Origin: Alphaproteobacteria bacterium
GTDB lineage: Bacteria > Pseudomonadota > Alphaproteobacteria > UBA2966
DNA length: 64,000 nucleotides
Direction: 5' to 3'
Assembly (NCBI GenBank): GCA_965242505.1
Contig: OZ251449.1
Location: forward strand, 2,803,843-2,867,842
Below are positions 6,129 through 61,660 of the stretch, in pieces. How positions within the stretch are numbered: the stretch's first letter is position 1; each line of letters starts with the position of its first letter. Made by a program: the position numbers and the translations under genes. Under the pieces are notes generated by a model. That model ran no database searches. It saw only the letters and a program-made list of their open reading frames with translations, and had not been told where the DNA came from.

Positions 6129-6849
6129 GGGGCGGGGCCAGTTTCGGAAAATCCAGAACTGGATCGGCGCCCCGGGCTCCCCGATAGGAAAGGCCGATTT
6201 CGTCCCGCCGGCCCCGGAGACCCTGATGCCCGAACTGGATGCGTGGGAGAAGTACTATCACGCGGAATCCCCCGACGGACTCGTCCAAATGGCCGTGGTC
6301 CACGCTCAGTTCGAAATCATCCATCCCTTCCTGGACGGCAACGGGCGTATCGGACGCATTCTGATACCGCTGTTTCTCGCGGAGAAGAAACTCCTTTCGC
6401 GCCCGATGTTCTATCTATCGTCGTACCTTGAACGACACAGGGACGAATACGTCTCGGGGCTGCGCGCCCTCAGCCGACGGAACGATGGCTGGAACCTCTG
6501 GATAGGCTTCTTTCTGCGCGCGGTCGAGGAGGAAGCGCGAGCGAACGCCGACAAGGCGAAAGCGATCATCGACCTCTACGCGGACCTGAAGGAGAGGGTG
6601 CTGGCTCTCACGCACTCACAATACGCCATCCCGCTCCTCGACCAGATGTTCGAGCGCCCGTTGTTCCGGAGCGCGATGCTTCGGTTTCCCGACGGTCTCG
6701 CGCCGAGTCGGCAGGCCGTGTCCCATCTGCTTCGTCAGTTGCGCAGCAGCGGCATCCTGAAGGTCCTGCGAGAAGGTCGGGGAAGACGCGCCCAAATCCT
6801 GGTCCTGGCCGAGCTCGTCAACATCTGCGAGGGCGAGGAGATCGTTTAG
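6129..6849 (+). pseudogene. Fic/DOC family protein (AMPylase-type), 5'-truncated at the junction with the IS fragment
   Basis: Canonical Fic motif HPFLDGNGRIGR in ...AVVHAQFEIIHPFLDGNGRIGRILIPLFL. The homologous reading frame begins abruptly at about 6128 (..QNWIGAPGSPIGKADFVPP..) with no N-terminal about 100 aa and no own start. Upstream residues of the track ORF are antisense IS sequence. Confidence 0.7.
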
Positions 6850-6892
6850 GCCGCATTTCTCATACCGGCAGGGATCGGAGATTGCGCGGCGT

Positions 6893-6960
6893 TGCGGGGC
6901 CGCGGACCCCCCTCCCGACCTCCCCCCTGCCAGGGGGGAGGAGTGCGCGGGGCGGGGGTC
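6893..6960. repeat. REP-like element (type A)
   Basis: cccccctcccgacctcccccctgccaggggggaggagtgcgcggggcggggg. Confidence 0.7.
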
Positions 6961-7010
6961 GTTCGGCGGCGGGGGAGCAGCAGCTTGAGCAGGCCGAACG
7001 CCAAGCCGCC
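6961..7010 (-). pseudogene. About 45-bp remnant of a DUF1640 gene 3' end (third, fragmentary copy)
   Basis: ggcggcgggggagcagcagcttgagcaggccgaacgccaagccg nearly matches the 3' ends of the paralogs at 3738-3790 and 4718-4770 (encoding ..GLAFGLLKLLPPAAG). As with those paralogs, it sits right beside a REP. Confidence 0.55.
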
Positions 7011-7191
7011 TGCGCCGGGTGTGGCGAAAAAGCCACATTCCGTGTCGTTCTCGCCCGCGGCGCGCGGTTCCGCCGCCGAACCCGCGGATTCCCGTTGATT
7101 CGGCGGAACGGCGCGTGCTTACGTTGAAGGGCGCAAAGACGCGTCGTATGGTTTTTGGCCAAACAACCCTGTTGGTTACGGAGGATCACGA

Positions 7192-8289
7192 ATGAAAACG
7201 CACAAGAGCAGGCTTCTCGCCACCAGCGCTCTGGCGGGCGCCGGGATGGCGCTTCCGGGCGTCGCGGCGGCCGAGATGATGAAGCCGGCCCTCTCGGTGG
7301 GCGGCTACCTCTGGCACGACACCCACTTCGCCAGCCAGGACATGGACGAGAACAAGAGCTCCGTCCTGCACCATGTCGACTCCGAGGTCCACTTCAAGCT
7401 GGCCGGCGAGCTCGACAACGGCCTCAAGATCGGCGGGCGCATCGAGCTCGAGAGCCAGACCGGCGGCGACCAGATCGACGAGACCTGGCTCGACCTTTCG
7501 GGCGCGTGGGGGATGCTCAGGTTCGGGAACAAGAACTCCGGGCGCTACGTCCACAGCTGGTCGGCGACGGGCCCGAACGTGTCCCACGGCGTCACCTCGG
7601 GCGTGACGACGGAATGGCTGGTTCTCCCTGAGGGTGTCGGCGCTGGCCTCTTCTTCCGCAAGCCGCTCGGCTCGGCCCACCCCGACGTCTCGAACGACGA
7701 CCCGGCCCTCACCTACTTCACGCCGCGCTTCAACGGCTTCCAGATCTCGGTGACCCACCGCCCCGAAATCCAGAACACGGGCGGCAAGAACATCGGGACG
7801 AGCGGGTCGGACGACACGGCGAACTACACCAACGCGCTCGACGGCTCGGTCCAGTACTCCGGCGACGTGGGCGGCATGAAGGTCGCCCTCGTGCTCGGCG
7901 CGGGCTCGGCCGGCGGTCCGGACGGCGCGGAGGACTACCAGGTCGTCAACGGCGGCGCCAAGGTCACCGCCAGCGGCTTCAGCTTCGGCGGCCACATGGC
8001 CGACGTGGAAGACGACATGAACAACGCCACCGGCACGGCGTACAGCGTCGGCGCGAGCTACGGGCAGGGCCCGTGGGCGGTGAGCGCGACGTTCCACGAT
8101 GGCGAGGTCGACGGCACCGTCGCCGACCCCGACAGCAGCGAGTTGTCGGTGTGGGCCCTGGGCACGAAATACACCCTCGGTCCGGGCGTGCGCCTCCTGG
8201 CGTCGTACCAGAACGCGGAGGTGACCTCGGAGCTCGGCGGCAGCAACGAGGGTTCGGCATTCACCGCGGGCGTCGCGGTCAACTTCTGA
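7192..8289 (+). CDS. Outer-membrane porin (alphaproteobacterial general porin type), 365 aa
   Basis: GGAGG RBS 7 nt upstream. Signal peptide MKTHKSRLLATSALAGAGMALPGVAAA. Gly/Ser/Thr-rich amphipathic beta-strand composition and a C-terminal ...AGVAVNF ending in Phe. The strong hairpin terminator follows. Confidence 0.8.
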   Translation: MKTHKSRLLATSALAGAGMALPGVAAAEMMKPALSVGGYLWHDTHFASQDMDENKSSVLHHVDSEVHFKLAGELDNGLKIGGRIELESQTGGDQIDETWLDLSGAWGMLRFGNKNSGRYVHSWSATGPNVSHGVTSGVTTEWLVLPEGVGAGLFFRKPLGSAHPDVSNDDPALTYFTPRFNGFQISVTHRPEIQNTGGKNIGTSGSDDTANYTNALDGSVQYSGDVGGMKVALVLGAGSAGGPDGAEDYQVVNGGAKVTASGFSFGGHMADVEDDMNNATGTAYSVGASYGQGPWAVSATFHDGEVDGTVADPDSSELSVWALGTKYTLGPGVRLLASYQNAEVTSELGGSNEGSAFTAGVAVNF

Positions 8290-14039: not shown

Positions 14040-14410
14040 CGGTCGCGCGCCTGCTCCTCCAGCGGCTTCGTTCGCGCCCCGCTCCGCCGCCGCGACCCCC
14101 ACCCCGACCCTCCCCCTGCAAGGGGGAGGGAAAACGATCAGGGAAGGGAGGGGGAGGAGCCGTTGACGATGACGCCTCTCCCCCCCTGACCATTGATACT
14201 CCTCCCCCCTGACAGGGGGGTCCGCGCGGCCCCGCGACGCCGTTCGCGCTTCGCTCCACCGCCGTGACCCCCACCCCGACCCTCCCCCTGCAAGGGGGAG
14301 GGAGAACGATTGGGGAGGGAAAAGGGAAGGGGCCGTTGACGATGACGCCTCGCCCCCCCCCCTGACCATTCATACTCCTCCCCCCTGACAGGGGGGAGGT
14401 CGGGAGGGGG
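14040..14410. repeat. Cluster of 6 or more REP-like elements (types A and B alternating) between hemE and the IS
   Basis: gacccccaccccgaccctccccctgcaagggggagggaaaacg..., ctcccccctgacaggggggtccgcg..., repeated twice with about 170-bp periodicity. Confidence 0.75.
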
Positions 14411-25673: not shown

Positions 25674-25874
25674 GTGCTGGACAGGATATTCGCCGCGGCC
25701 GGGATGCTGGGCCTCGCCGCCTTCATGGGCATCGTCGCCGTCTACGTGATGGAGCCGGCCCTCTGGCTCGTCGTCTTCGTCGGGGTGTCCATCGCCGTCT
25801 TCTTCGTCTGGCGCGACGCCGCGGCGGCGGGGAACGGACCCGGCGGGCCGCGCGGGGACGGGGACGGCGCATGA
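25674..25874 (+). CDS. Small two-TM membrane protein (66 aa)
   Basis: GGAGG-N5-GTG. (M)LDRIFAAAGMLGLAAFMGIVAVYVMEPALWLVVFVGVSIAVFFVW. The stop overlaps the next ATG (ATGA). Confidence 0.5.
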   Translation: MLDRIFAAAGMLGLAAFMGIVAVYVMEPALWLVVFVGVSIAVFFVWRDAAAAGNGPGGPRGDGDGA

Positions 25875-26809
25875 GCGTCGGAATCGGAGTCGGCCTGAGC
25901 GAGTTTCCGTTCGAGACGGCGCGGGGGTTCTGGCGCTGGATCGAGGCGTGCGAGGACTCGGCCGTCGATTCGGTCTGGCAGACCGACCGGCTGATCACCG
26001 ACGCCCCGATGCTGGAGAGCCTGACCACGATGGCCGCCGTCGCCGGCGCGACCAGGCGCCTCAAGTTCGGCATGAACGTCGTCGCGCTCGGCTGGCGCGA
26101 CCCGCTGGTCGTCGCCAAGCAGTGCGCCTCGATCGACTTCCTCAGCGGGGGCCGCCTGTTGCCCGCCTTCGGGATCGGCGCCTCCCGCGGCGAGGAGTGG
26201 CGGGCGACGGGCCGCGACGCCGGGAGGCGCGGCGCGCGGACCGACGAGGCGCTCGACGTCATCGCCCGCCTGTGGGCCGGGGAGAGCGTGGATCACGACG
26301 GCGAGCACTTCCGCTACTGCGGGGTCCGGATCTCGCCGTTGCCGGTCCAGAAGCGCCTGCCGCTGTGGATCGGCGGCGGCAGCAAGGCCGCCGTCCGCCG
26401 CGCCGCCCGCGTCGGCACCGGCTGGCTGGGCGGCTTCCAGTCCCCGGACGAGGCGGCGCCGGTGGTGGCCGCCATCAAGGCCGCCGCCAGGGAGGCGGGA
26501 CGGCGCATCCCCGACGACCATTACGGCGCCGGCTTCCACTTCCGCTTCGGCTCCTGGGACGACGCTCCCGTGGCGCCGCGGGCGGAGGCCGTCGCCAGGC
26601 GCAACGCGCGGAAACCCGAGGACTGCATGGTCGTCGGCGGGGCCGCCGACGTGGTGGAGAGGCTCCGGCGGTTCATCGCCGGCGGGGTCTCGAAGTTCGT
26701 GCTCCAGCCGATCGCGGCCGGCGACGAGGACACCCTCGACCAGACCCGACGCCTGATCGGCGAAGTGCTGCCCGAGACGCCGAGCCTCGACGAACTGGCG
26801 CGGGGCTGA
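25871..26809 (+). CDS. LLM-class (luciferase-like) flavin-dependent oxidoreductase, 312 aa
   Basis: MSVGIGVGLSEFPFETARGFWRWIEACEDSAVDSVWQTDRL..., ..LWIGGGSKAAVRRAARVGTGW.. is the TIM-barrel LLM pattern. Confidence 0.8.
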   Translation: MSVGIGVGLSEFPFETARGFWRWIEACEDSAVDSVWQTDRLITDAPMLESLTTMAAVAGATRRLKFGMNVVALGWRDPLVVAKQCASIDFLSGGRLLPAFGIGASRGEEWRATGRDAGRRGARTDEALDVIARLWAGESVDHDGEHFRYCGVRISPLPVQKRLPLWIGGGSKAAVRRAARVGTGWLGGFQSPDEAAPVVAAIKAAAREAGRRIPDDHYGAGFHFRFGSWDDAPVAPRAEAVARRNARKPEDCMVVGGAADVVERLRRFIAGGVSKFVLQPIAAGDEDTLDQTRRLIGEVLPETPSLDELARG

Positions 26810-26849
26810 CCGCGGTGCCGGAGCGTCGGCGCGGCGTTGCGGGACCGCG

Positions 26850-26925
26850 GTCCGCCCCCCTCTTCTCCCTCTCCCTTGCAGGGGGAGGGTCGGGGTGGGG
26901 GTCGCGTCGAGGGGAAGGAGCATGA
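26850..26925. repeat. REP-like element (type B variant) between the LLM gene and tRNA-Gly
   Basis: cccctcttctccctctcccttgcagggggagggtcggggtgggggtcgcg. Confidence 0.65.
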
Positions 26926-26947
26926 ACGGGGCCGGCTGTCCCGTCGC

Positions 26948-27022
26948 TGGAGCGGGCGAAGGGATTCGAACCCTCGACTTCGACCTTGGCAAGGTCGCGC
27001 TCTACCCCTGAGCTACGCCCGC
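26948..27022 (-). tRNA. tRNA-Gly (anticodon GCC), 75 nt including the encoded CCA
   Basis: Reverse complement is GCGGGCGTAGCTCAGGGGTAGAGCGCGACCTTGCCAAGGTCGAAGTCGAGGGTTCGAATCCCTTCGCCCGCTCCA. The cloverleaf is complete, the anticodon loop is TTGCCAA, and the T-loop is TTCGAAT. Confidence 0.9.
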
Positions 27023-27299
27023 GTTCCGGCGACGACGGCCGCCATGGCGTCGGCGGCGCGCGACCGCAACCATACCCGGGCGCGGCGCAAGCGGCAAGGG
27101 ACGCGGGTGGTGTCTCAATCTGAAAGCCTCGTTCCTGCGGTAGCGGCGGGAGTGCGCGCCGGCCCCGGCCGCCACCCGGGAAGAGGCGGCGTTGACGGCG
27201 ACGGTCGTTTTCGACTATGGGTCAAGGGGTTCGGGCGCACGGCGAGAGGAAGCGGCGCGCCCCGGCCCGGACGCGCACTCACCCGGAGGACTCGAGCCC

Positions 27300-27779
27300 G
27301 TGAACGCGCGCGACTTGATGGCGGCCGCCTGCGCCTTGGCCGAATCCGGCCGCGGGAACCCTTCGCAGGCGCGGCTCCGCCGCGCCGTCAGCACCGTCTA
27401 CTACGCGATGTTCCACTGCCTGGCGGCGACGGCGGCCGACCTGTTGATCGGCCCGGCGCGCGGCCCGGCATGGCATCGGGTGTACCGCGCATTGGAGCAC
27501 GGCAGGGCCAGGGGCGCGTGTCGGCAAGGACAGACGATGCGGGAGTTTCCGGCGGAGGTCCGCAACTTCGCCGAGACGTTCGTCGTGTTGCAGAAGGTGC
27601 GGCAGCAGGCCGACTATGCGCTGGACGTGGAGGCTTACCGGACGTCCGACGTTCTGGAATACATTGCCTCCGCAGAGCGCGCCATCGACCGGTTCGAGCA
27701 GGTGGACGCCGCGGCCAGGCGCGCCTTCGCCGCTCATGCGCTGTTCAGGCAACGATCGCCCCAGGAGATTCCGGGATGA
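27300..27779 (+). CDS. Hypothetical all-alpha protein (about 159 aa), first gene of a tRNA-adjacent two-gene module
   Basis: GGAGG-N10-GTG. (M)NARDLMAAACALAESGRGNPSQARLRRAVSTVYYAMFHCLAATAADLL... Conserved-looking R..x..YYAxFH and RN..E motifs faintly resemble HEPN-type toxin folds. No confident family assignment. Confidence 0.5.
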   Translation: MNARDLMAAACALAESGRGNPSQARLRRAVSTVYYAMFHCLAATAADLLIGPARGPAWHRVYRALEHGRARGACRQGQTMREFPAEVRNFAETFVVLQKVRQQADYALDVEAYRTSDVLEYIASAERAIDRFEQVDAAARRAFAAHALFRQRSPQEIPG

Positions 27780-28075
27780 ACGAGCAGCAGGTTCGCGAGA
27801 TCGCGGAGGCGGCCTTCAAGGCCCGCTTCGCCGACATCCCCATCGTCAGCGTCGACGTCGAGCCCGGCTTCGACCACTACGACGACCCCATGCTGGACGT
27901 GAAGATCGTCTACGACGGCGAGGTCGAGCAGTTGATCGGCCGAGGGCGCTCGATGGAGGTGCGCTCGGAGATCATCGAGAAGGTGTGGTGGAAAGCCGAG
28001 GATTCCCCTGTCTGGCCGTTTGTCCACTTCATCGCCAGATCCGACCTCGAGCAACCCGACCCGGCCGCCGCCTGA
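27777..28075 (+). CDS. Hypothetical protein (99 aa), second gene of the module, with ATGA overlap onto the upstream gene
   Basis: MNEQQVREIAEAAFKARFADIPIVSVDVEPGFDHYDDPMLDVKIVYDGEVEQLIGRGRSMEVRSEIIEKVWWKAEDSPVWPFVHFIARSDLEQPDPAAA. It is the C-terminal part of a composite 412-aa track ORF. Confidence 0.5.
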
Positions 28076-28206
28076 TCCCCATCCCTGCGGAGGCGGGCGC
28101 CGCGCGCCTGCGCCGCCGTTACCGGGACGCGACTCGCGACGCTTGGCCGCCCCCTCCGCGTCGGCTATCGTCGCGCCTGCACCGGCCGCCTGCCGACGAT
28201 GGGACC

Positions 28207-28719
28207 ATGCCCGCGACCGAGCGCGACCTGTACGACCGCCTTGCGGAACTCGACATCGCATGCGCGACGCGCCGCCATCCCGCGTTGCGGACGGTCGAGG
28301 AGAGCAGGCGTCTGCGCGGCGACCTGCCCGGCGGTCACTGCAAGAGCCTGTTCCTGAAGGACAAGAAGGGCGCGGCGTACCTCCTGGTCGCCCTGGAGGA
28401 CCGCGGGATCGACCTGAAGCGTCTGCGCCGGGCGATCGGAGCGGCGCCGCTTTCGTTCGGACGGCCCGAACTGCTGATGGAGCTCCTCGGCGTGATCCCC
28501 GGAGCGGTCACGCCGTTCGGGCTGATCAACGACGCGGACGCCCGGGTGCGCGTGGTTCTCGACAGGGAGATGCTGGAACGGGACCCGCTCAACTACCACC
28601 CGTTGACCAACGAGGCGACGACGGCCATCGCGCCGGGCGACCTGTTGAAGTTCATCCGCGCCTGCGGCCACGAGCCGCGAATACTGGATTTCGGGACGCT
28701 GGACGACTCCGGCGGCTGA
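28207..28719 (+). CDS. YbaK/ProX-type aminoacyl-tRNA deacylase (prolyl-tRNA synthetase-associated editing domain protein), 170 aa
   Basis: ..GGHCKSLFLKDKKGAAYLLVALEDRGIDLKRL...PGAVTPFGLINDADARVRVVLD.. is the ProX/PrdX family pattern. Confidence 0.8.
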   Translation: MPATERDLYDRLAELDIACATRRHPALRTVEESRRLRGDLPGGHCKSLFLKDKKGAAYLLVALEDRGIDLKRLRRAIGAAPLSFGRPELLMELLGVIPGAVTPFGLINDADARVRVVLDREMLERDPLNYHPLTNEATTAIAPGDLLKFIRACGHEPRILDFGTLDDSGG

Positions 28720-60519: not shown

Positions 60520-61660
60520 CGTATGCGCTCCTCTCCCCTGCCGTGACCCCCACCCCGACCCTCCCCCTGCAAGGGAGAGGGAGAACAAGAGGGGACGGGA
60601 AAGGGCCATTGACGCTCCTCCCCCCCTGACCATCCATACTCCTCCCCCCTGACAGGGGGGAGGTCGGGAGGGGGGTCCGCGGCCCCGCAACGCCGTTCGC
60701 GCTCCGCTCCCCTGGCGTGACCCCCACCCCGACCCTCCCCCTGCAAGGGGGAGGGAGAAGAAGGGGGGACGCGGAGGGAGCCGTCGACGCTCCTCCCCCC
60801 TGACAGGGGGGAGGTCGGGAGGGGGGTCCGCGGCCCCGCAACGCCGTTCGCGCTCCGCTCCCCTGGCGCGACCCCCACCCCGACCCTCCCCCTGCAAGGG
60901 GGAGGGAGAACGTAAGGGGACGCGGAGGGAGCCGTCGACGCTCCTCCCCCCTGACCATCCATGCTCCATCCCCCCCTGCCCCCCTGACCATCCATACTCC
61001 TCCCCCCTGACAGGGGGGAGGTCGGGAGGGGGGTCCGCGGCCCCGCAACGCCGCCGTTCGCGCTCCGCTCCTCTGGCGTGACCCCCACCCCGACCCTCCC
61101 CCTGCAAGGGAGAGGGAGAACAAGAGGGGACGGGAAAGGGCCATTGACGCTCCTCCCCCCTGACCATCCATGCTCCATCCCCCCTGACCATCCATACTCC
61201 TCCCCCCTGACAGGGGGGAGGTCGGGAGGGGGGTCCGCGGCCCCGCAACGCCGCCGTTCGCGCTCCGCTCCCCTGGCGCGACCCCCACCCCGACCCTCCC
61301 CCTGCAAGGGAGAGGGAGAACAAGAGGGGACGGGAGGAGGGCGGACCGCGGCCCCGCAACGCCGTTCGCGCTCCGCTCCCCTGGCGGGACCCCCACCCCG
61401 GCCCTCCCCCTGCAAGGGAGAGGGAGAACAAGAGGGGACGGGAGGGGGGTGGACGCGGCCCGCAACGCCGTTCGCGCTCCGCTCCTCTGGCGTGACCCCC
61501 ACCCCGGCCCTCCCCCTGCAAGGGAGAGGGAGAAGAAGGGGGGAGGTCGGGAGGGGGGTGGACGCGATCCTGCAACGCCGTTCGCGCTCCGCTCCCCTGG
61601 CGTGACCCCCACCCCGACCCTCCCCCTGCAAGGGGGAGGGAGAACGTAAGGGGATGGAGG
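60520..61660. repeat. About 1.1-kb tandem array of 7 or more composite REP/BIME-like units (each about 110-210 bp, holding one type B and one type A palindrome plus a conserved linker ccgcggccccgcaacgccgttcgcgctccgctcccctggcg)
   Basis: The units start at about 60523, 60675, 60826, 61039, 61237, 61348, 61448 and 61570. Some carry an extra insert, ctgaccatccatgctccatcccccctgaccatccatactcc. No unique spacers are present. Confidence 0.85.

Follow-up and report, generated by a model that had tools for sequence, protein, structure and literature searches.

A strain-specific islet beside a tRNA-Gly gene carries a mobile gene pair, a candidate toxin-antitoxin module of a HEPN-fold protein and an acidic partner

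In a 64,000-nucleotide stretch of an alphaproteobacterial chromosome (contig OZ251449.1; the whole 64-kb stretch is called the window here) we have found a strain-specific islet with two overlapping genes, A and B, that are strictly paired and behave as a mobile unit. On balance, and with modest confidence, we read this islet as a mobile module of the toxin-antitoxin (TA) type, made up of a HEPN toxin and a protein antitoxin; the toxicity, the RNase activity, the binding of A by B and the biological role are the parts that we infer. A more specific proposal is tentative and falls a little short of an even chance: the pair would represent an undescribed TA family, in which an AF0298-type HEPN toxin with a non-canonical site is neutralized by an acidic KH-like protein instead of an MNT nucleotidyltransferase, perhaps as an RNA mimic on the RNA-binding face of the toxin. 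As a compact module of about 0.8 kb, it would have spread recently between bacterial phyla, to all appearance within host-associated communities of the sea, and onto conjugative plasmids of Rhizobium. The elements of the locus are listed here, L082 to L086 being contigs from related strains.

26948-27022, minus strand: tRNA-Gly(GCC) (ARAGORN; Rfam tRNA, 70 bits), a neighbor of the islet outside the mobile unit
27023-27097: conserved upstream flank of tRNA-Gly and left insertion border (blastn and alignment against L082, L084, L085 and L086, 95-97% identity)
27098-28140, plus strand: strain-specific islet, 1043 bp (comparison with related strains)
27098-27266, plus strand: islet leader, not common to other A-B loci, the homology between loci starting only at 27267-27300
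27267-28080, plus strand: conserved mobile core with ribosome-binding site, gene A and gene B (72-90% nucleotide identity in other classes and phyla, blastn against 81 loci; synonymous divergence, dS, 0.15-0.90)
27285-27289, plus strand: ribosome-binding site GGAGG of gene A, 10 nt before the start (sequence)
27300-27779, plus strand: gene A, from GTG at 27300 to the TGA ending at 27779, 159 aa, basic HEPN-fold protein, putative toxin
27776-27779, plus strand: ATGA overlap of the gene B start and the gene A stop (sequence)
27776-28075, plus strand: gene B, from ATG at 27776 to the TGA ending at 28075, 99 aa, acidic protein of an unannotated family, putative antitoxin
28096-28140: stretch closing the islet on the right, which repeats the left target flank (27052-27097) directly but in degenerate form (alignment; overlapping matches to L084 in blastn)

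An initial annotation of the window had described a tRNA-Gly(GCC) followed by two overlap-coupled genes, with about 280 bp between the tRNA and the first of them, a GGAGG, a 159-aa product and an ATGA-coupled 99-aa partner. ARAGORN, Rfam and the sequence bear out this layout in full, the distance from the start of gene A to the 5' end of tRNA-Gly (the sole tRNA of the window according to ARAGORN) being 277 nt. Through the ATGA overlap, B is translationally coupled to A. A terminator scan gave nothing useful.

Since the genome has a GC content of about 70% and is rich in spurious long open reading frames (ORFs), we have checked that A and B are genuine. Both are real genes and no chance ORFs. 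Database searches returned 663 homologues of A and 132 of B, 178 relatives of B were retrieved when 1.84 billion representative proteins were searched with a profile, and the ratio of nonsynonymous to synonymous divergence (dN/dS) against eight other copies was 0.19-0.46 for A and 0.20-0.68 for B. The nucleotide homology among the A-B loci (blastn, 81 loci) sets in at about 27267-27300 and ends at 28075-28080, and the conserved unit therefore consists of the ribosome-binding site and the two genes. Because of this onset, GTG at 27300 is preferred over an upstream TTG at 27192 as the start of gene A.

The two genes are regularly associated in these loci. We have scanned GTDB at one genome per species, which confirmed at least 544 A loci in many phyla, and have analyzed in detail the best 80 of them together with one more (81 loci, with 83 copies of A). 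By use of a hidden Markov model (HMM) of the B family, applied to the same strand within 150 nt of A, a B-like gene was detected beside A in 78 of the 83 copies. One of the five unpaired copies is located at a contig edge, two have an upstream ORF that is B-like by eye and scores below the cut-off (one of them 223 nt upstream of A), and the remaining two are degraded, one with a truncated B and the other with an A truncated at its N terminus. The order is A-B in 31 of the 78 pairs and B-A in 47; the former is that of the branch nearest to the window copy, and the latter belongs mostly to a more distant branch in which B typically overlaps the start of A. The identities of A and of B to their window copies are correlated (Spearman 0.69, p 3e-12). 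In 76 of 79 pairs the divergence of B is faster than that of A, and B has only 3 columns conserved at 85% or more, vs 45 in A. Taken together, A and B form one strictly paired unit of small, co-directional, overlapping and co-inherited genes, as is characteristic of type II TA modules.

The AlphaFold2 model of A (mean predicted local distance difference test, pLDDT, 87) consists of 8 helices and is all-alpha, as the initial annotation had it, with the up-and-down four-helix bundle of HEPN domains and an insert between helices 2 and 3. The faint resemblance to HEPN folds that had been perceived in the sequence was upheld by profile searches as well. A matches the Pfam HEPN family PF05168 (E 0.003, 18.1 bits, profile positions 20-114 of 117) below its gathering cut-off of 22 bits. 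A profile of the A family, compared with the PDB sequences, matches AF0298, with the stretch STAYYAMFH identical, and also the recent HEPN entry 9xbd (LRNRSDYDLD, vs ARQEADYALD in A). As none of 11 diverse members of the A family reaches the PF05168 threshold (the best of 10 relatives scores 17.8 bits), the family is unannotated in Pfam, and NCBIfam and PADLOC scans of A gave no match. In PHROGs, A matches the phage family phrog_5176 (function unknown) at E 2e-8.

We have examined the conservation of A in 84 members of its family, the most distant of them having about 42% identity. Residues R27, R28, S31, Y34, Y35, F38, H39, W58, R63, H67, Q98, R101, A104, D105 and Y106 are 96-100% conserved. 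Of the two motifs singled out initially, R..YYAxFH stands (R28, Y34, Y35, F38 and H39 are nearly invariant) and RN does not, R88-N89 lying away from the HEPN motif position. What occupies this position, at the end of the helix spanning residues 85-106, is R101-Q-Q-A-D105-Y106 (R-x-x-A-D-Y), with R101 conserved in 97% of the sequences and H67, D105 and Y106 in 100%. The canonical Rx4-6H at the end of helix 3 is missing in A and present in 2 of the 84 family members. According to model and alignment, W58, R63 and H67 are carried by the two helices of the insert (56-64 and 67-79). In the AF0298-like HEPN-T proteins the histidine of Rx4-6H is likewise absent, often with an aspartate in its place, the arginine is kept, and a second conserved histidine in the helix 2-3 insert has been proposed to complete an alternative RNase site (PMC3710099). 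Given that A keeps the arginine (R101), has D105 instead of the histidine and bears the invariant H67 within the insert, we assign this HEPN-fold protein to the AF0298-like HEPN-T type. The protein is basic (pI 9.5; family median 9.8).

The model of B is confident (mean pLDDT 92.7). Its elements, alpha(3-17), beta(23-32), beta(38-46), alpha(50-56), alpha(59-72) and beta(80-87), follow each other in the alpha-beta-beta-alpha-alpha-beta order of type II KH domains, and the best structural matches found by Foldseek are the type II KH domains of Era, RbfA, S3 and KhpB; nothing appeared in this search at E ≤0.001, the best value being 0.011. No family match was obtained for B in Pfam, NCBIfam, PADLOC or PHROGs. 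A scan of 72 diverse B members gave no consistent family, no NTP_transf_2 and no Pfam KH match, and a search of the PDB sequences with the B profile gave nothing below E 0.4. The GXXG loop that is the hallmark of KH domains appears in 21 of 90 B sequences and is thus not conserved. B is markedly acidic (pI 4.4, net charge -11; family median pI 4.6), and its best-conserved polar positions are acidic too (D33 in 73%, D37 in 87%, D47 in 91% and D90 in 89%). A true KH domain is ruled out by the unconserved GXXG, the acidity and the weak Foldseek matches; as modeled, B has no more than the topology in common with a KH domain. Being too acidic, it is also unlikely to bind nucleic acids. Nor is B an MNT nucleotidyltransferase: it is without the motifs (a loose regular expression for the signature hG[GS]x9-13Dh[DE]h hits 8 of 90 sequences) and has another topology.

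Two relatives of B, P0328 (215 aa) and P0355 (209 aa), are single polypeptides of two tandem B-like domains, and these fusions suggest that B may act as a dimer. Three giant repeat proteins that were significant against the B profile (P0253, P0366 and P0377, 1036-3138 aa) have been discarded, their scores being sums of weak repeats and not a sign of homology.

We have compared the same slot in close relatives, using contigs from related populations with 95-97% nucleotide identity to the window on both sides. In L085 and L086 the site is empty. Position 27097 is joined to 28141 with 2 nt between them and tRNA-Gly directly adjoins proX, which sets the limits of the islet (27098-28140). L082, a 96%-identical relative in this region (its positions 6734-8014 correspond to window positions 26933-28220), contains an unrelated pair in the slot, a DUF4325 STAS-like protein of 116 aa and a 154-aa protein without family; this cassette is bounded by a direct repeat of 81 bp, into which the first bases of proX fall. 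The slot of L087/L088 (1-810) has a third content, which is either a called gene of 117 aa or an ORF of 158 aa with lower GC. In L089 the site is otherwise empty, with a 19-nt filler at the junction (93-111) that begins much as the window islet does at its left end. The A-B pair is therefore a strain-specific islet, a point that the initial annotation had suggested to check by comparison with closely related genomes. The degenerate 45-nt similarity between the left flank and the right end of the window islet is of uncertain significance, and any further repeats near the islet were short and weak, no more than GC-rich DNA would be expected to show. Clues to the way in which cassettes enter the slot are the duplication of 81 bp in L082, the 45-nt similarity and the L089 filler.

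The initial annotation had also pointed to tRNA genes as preferred integration sites. Islands that bring their own integrase insert at the 3' end of tRNA genes. The islet lies 75 nt upstream of the tRNA-Gly 5' end and not at its 3' end, a second copy of the 3' end (the repeat of an attachment, att, site that had been suggested for search) is not found in the window, the 1043 bp contain no integrase, A and B being their only genes, and a tRNA is located within 1 kb of the pair in only 1 of 60 other loci. For these reasons tRNA-Gly is not the integration target, and the idea is not supported. A more fitting description of the slot is that of an intergenic hotspot, with the divergent tRNA-Gly and proX on either side.

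Mobility is also evident at larger scale. Among the loci analyzed, the closest alphaproteobacterial copy has 90% nucleotide identity to the window, and copies from Pseudomonadales, other Gammaproteobacteria and Nitrospirales have 77-84%. Across all compared copies dS is 0.15-0.90, and 0.34-0.90 for those of Nitrospirales and Pseudomonadales; such low values between phyla indicate that the pair was transferred horizontally in recent times. Several copies per genome are found, and several chromosomes of metagenome-assembled genomes (MAGs) have three to five loci or tandem arrays. The window's own chromosome (3.67 Mb) has a second A (P0001, 94% identical) outside the window; inside the window there is no second copy of the pair. 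Decay is common too, many database entries being frameshifted remnants. The alphaproteobacterial MAG OZ251446.1 has two copies of the pair, one of them between a 2748-aa gene and that of adenylosuccinate lyase; the other (L092, 4756-5300, at about 0.49 Mb) has decayed, with a truncated A of 82 aa and a complete B (99 aa), and genes for PIN-domain, ResIII-helicase and alpha/beta-hydrolase proteins lie some 0.5-1.7 kb upstream of it. Many other A-B copies sit among ordinary metabolic genes.

Plasmids are among the carriers. A relative of A is present in 29 plasmid records; Rhizobium accounts for 27 of these, and 19 are conjugative. In the Rhizobium leguminosarum plasmid pRL23b2 (NZ_CP050089.1; L090, 2090-2905) we have confirmed a B-A pair, in which WP_017958513.1, B-like by HMM (E 3e-16), is immediately upstream of WP_128409084.1; both are annotated as "hypothetical protein." To judge from names only, many of the host MAGs may come from marine, sponge-associated communities. 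With empty sites in L085 and L086, several copies per genome and a presence on conjugative Rhizobium plasmids, the pair behaves as a mobile unit, as TA modules do. The behavior of a mobile TA or defense module, surmised initially from gene sizes and coupling, is thus recovered in the linkage of A and B, the multiple copies, the plasmids and the movement across phyla.

A separate observation is that of a pair with 41% GC in a Rhodothermales MAG (L068, 4412-10204), with a gap of 223 nt between B and A and, directly downstream, a 1442-aa ORF that looks by eye, from its sequence only, like a restriction-type helicase-methylase.

As a working mechanism, A would be a dimeric RNA-cleaving or RNA-binding toxin, in which R101, D105 and Y106, together with H67 and possibly also H39, would make up the presumed RNase site. 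B, in turn, would act as an acidic and labile antitoxin in the place normally held by an MNT antitoxin. As it has no nucleotidyltransferase motifs and is too acidic for nucleic acid binding, it may neutralize A by direct binding in the manner of type II systems, instead of the AMPylation of type VII HEPN-MNT systems, its acidic surface (D33, D37, D47, D90) lying over the basic RNA-binding face of A. The family medians of pI (9.8 for A vs 4.6 for B) are complementary in the sense that this model predicts.

Several results count against a TA module. The promoter scan upstream of gene A gave no sigma-70-like site and identified no operator, and the B scans revealed none of the domains expected for autoregulation (helix-turn-helix, ribbon-helix-helix or AbrB). 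Without Rx4-6H, the RNase activity of A is only a published prediction for the HEPN-T type. PADLOC-DB 2.0 contains no family matching A or B at E up to 1, tblastn of A against 50,697 phage genomes returned no relative, and neither did a scan of viral contigs (IMG/VR) that was seeded with, and limited to, a pattern.

The reading nearest to the TA module is that of an abortive-infection or anti-phage pair, in which a HEPN effector RNase would be held by B until a phage cue releases or activates A; it overlaps with the former, differs from it mainly in the role, and appears to us possible though rather unlikely. In its favor are the slot, a variable hotspot with different small cassettes in sister strains, the helicase-methylase-looking ORF beside one copy, the PIN and ResIII genes near another and the match of A to phrog_5176. 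PADLOC gives no match, however, many copies are surrounded by metabolic genes, and those on plasmids fit an addiction role equally well. Less probable still is a non-toxic complex of two subunits for RNA handling or regulation, with a KH-like B that binds RNA and targets A, or with A as a HEPN protein devoid of catalytic activity that binds nucleotides or RNA, in the way of MtlR or of the C-terminal domains of nucleotidyltransferases. The structural matches of B (Era, RbfA, S3, KhpB), the missing Rx4-6H of A and the existence of inactive HEPN domains (PMC3710099) would agree with it, but the net charge of -11 and the family median pI of B, a GXXG loop in only 21 of 90 sequences and Foldseek matches that stay above E 0.001 do not. 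Furthermore, strain-level presence and absence, multiple and decayed copies and transfer between phyla speak against a housekeeping or regulatory role in the host.

We consider it very improbable that the roles are reversed, with toxicity residing in B and with A acting as antitoxin or immunity protein, which was the prediction for MNT-HEPN pairs before 2013. HEPN proteins were formerly predicted as antitoxins (PMC3710099), and in the branch of the window A does hold the upstream position usual for antitoxins; over the whole set, however, 47 of the 78 pairs have B upstream. Of the two proteins it is A that is conserved and looks like an enzyme, with invariant polar residues, and B, with its three well-conserved columns, evolves faster and is found as an orphan beside a truncated A. 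Experiments on other HEPN pairs have shown the HEPN protein to be the toxin (PMC3710099). Hardly any credence is left for two core housekeeping genes linked to tRNA-Gly and proX. Only the position between tRNA-Gly and a tRNA-editing gene would favor this role, and it is refuted by the empty-site strains, from which the pair is absent between flanks that are 96% identical; the contexts in other genomes are unrelated, and a tRNA is near the pair in just 1 of 60. Two findings had been named beforehand as speaking against a toxin or defense module, namely synteny across the family with housekeeping annotations and a lack of likeness to toxin or defense folds, and neither is what we see.

The candidate TA module can be compared with several described systems. 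The HEPN-T proteins (PF05168; AF0298/UPF0332, PDB 2hsb; TTHA0636, 1wwp; PMC3710099) share with A the helix S-T-A-Y-Y-A-M-F-H, identical in AF0298, the retained arginine without the motif histidine, followed by aspartate and tyrosine, and the alternative histidine in the helix 2-3 insert. A differs from them in a Pfam score below the cut-off (18.1 vs 22 bits) and in its length (159 aa vs 119-139 aa in the closest structural matches), with a two-helix insert. HEPN-T proteins are normally encoded beside an MNT gene, usually located 5' of the HEPN gene (PMC3710099), and B is not of this kind. The type VII HEPN-MNT systems (Shewanella SO_3166/SO_3165, Aphanizomenon HEPN/MNT and Legionella HEPN-MNT; PDB 5yep, 7ae2, 8xdj) likewise combine a HEPN toxin with a small partner whose gene often comes first; they too are mobile dyads that occur in multiple copies, and a tyrosine is found next to the motif (Y106 in A). 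Their toxins, however, are of the DUF86 type with Rx4HxY, where A has RxxADY, and their antitoxin AMPylates the toxin tyrosine; B has neither the hG[GS]...DxD signature nor an NTP_transf_2 match, and its topology is another one. To judge from these sequence features, the module is not a member of the type VII HEPN-MNT family.

Type II TA systems with RNase toxins and acidic protein antitoxins (such as RnlA-RnlB and LsoA-LsoB, HEPN toxins) offer a parallel in organization, with a HEPN-fold toxin, an unrelated small protein that is the presumed direct inhibitor, overlapping genes, basic-acidic complementarity and both gene orders. RnlB, LsoB and Dmd have no relation to B in sequence or fold. RnlA and LsoA are multi-domain proteins, whereas A is a single-domain HEPN known here from sequence and model. 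Many type II antitoxins have a DNA-binding domain, unlike B, in which none is recognizable. From the type II KH domains (the Era C-terminal domain, RbfA, the S3 N-domain and KhpB) B is set apart by the unconserved GXXG, the strong acidity, the missing Pfam KH match and Foldseek values of E ≥0.011. AbiV, a HEPN toxin with an RNA antitoxin (type III; bioRxiv 10.1101/2024.05.05.592566), also belongs to a two-component system, whereas the partner of A is a conserved protein. In the 2013 HEPN census AbiV is placed with the AF0298-like HEPN-T proteins, as it has no motif histidine and an alternative histidine in the helix 2-3 insert (PMC3710099); A has no match to Pfam HEPN_AbiV. We have found no description of the A-B pair in the searchable literature or in PADLOC.

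The surroundings of the islet had been described initially as a repetitive extragenic palindromic (REP) element on one side and genes for a YbaK/ProX-type and a thioredoxin-TPR protein on the other, and this description is accurate. Downstream of the islet are the gene of the tRNA_edit (YbaK/ProX) protein and then that of the thioredoxin-TPR protein, assigned by Pfam on 96%-identical relatives; between window and L082, proX has a dN/dS of 0.16. The REP-like element at 26869-26901 is a GC-rich palindrome of 33 nt (CTCTCCCTTGCAGGGGGAGGGTCGGGGTGGGGG) with 21 copies in the 64 kb vs 0 expected. Other copies are found at 14096/14268, 20051/20223 and 54512/54714, and an array of 8, spaced 106-210 nt, is located near 61 kb (60547-61638). 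The luciferase-like monooxygenase gene beside the hotspot (window 25871-26809 vs L082 4739-5677) has a dN/dS of 0.82 (dN 0.026, dS 0.032), a ratio that is noisy at such low divergence. Between this gene and tRNA-Gly the related strains (L082, 5694-6567; also L084, L085 and L086) have a minus-strand ORF of 233 aa, which gives a weak N6_N4 DNA-methylase match (E 0.008). Window positions 26826-26932 hold only the REP element in its place, and a second strain-variable spot thus exists on the other side of the tRNA.

The practical gain from these results is modest: two protein families that could be annotated, and one further candidate TA or defense family. The locus illustrates cleanly, in a natural setting, how the content of a 1-kb hotspot can vary between near-identical strains; separately, the copies of the two-gene unit in different phyla have diverged only modestly. 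New candidate TA families are common, and the worth of the A-B pair lies in a poorly understood, non-canonical HEPN-T type with a new partner, in culturable carriers and in an unusually clear mobility at both strain level and across phyla. The copies on Rhizobium leguminosarum plasmids provide such carriers for testing whether the non-canonical HEPN site is catalytic. The AF0298-type HEPN-T proteins are abundant, are only predicted to be RNases with an alternative site and are known almost exclusively as partners of MNT proteins. Here the same kind of HEPN is tied to a wholly different, unannotated partner, which would imply a second way of neutralizing the toxin.

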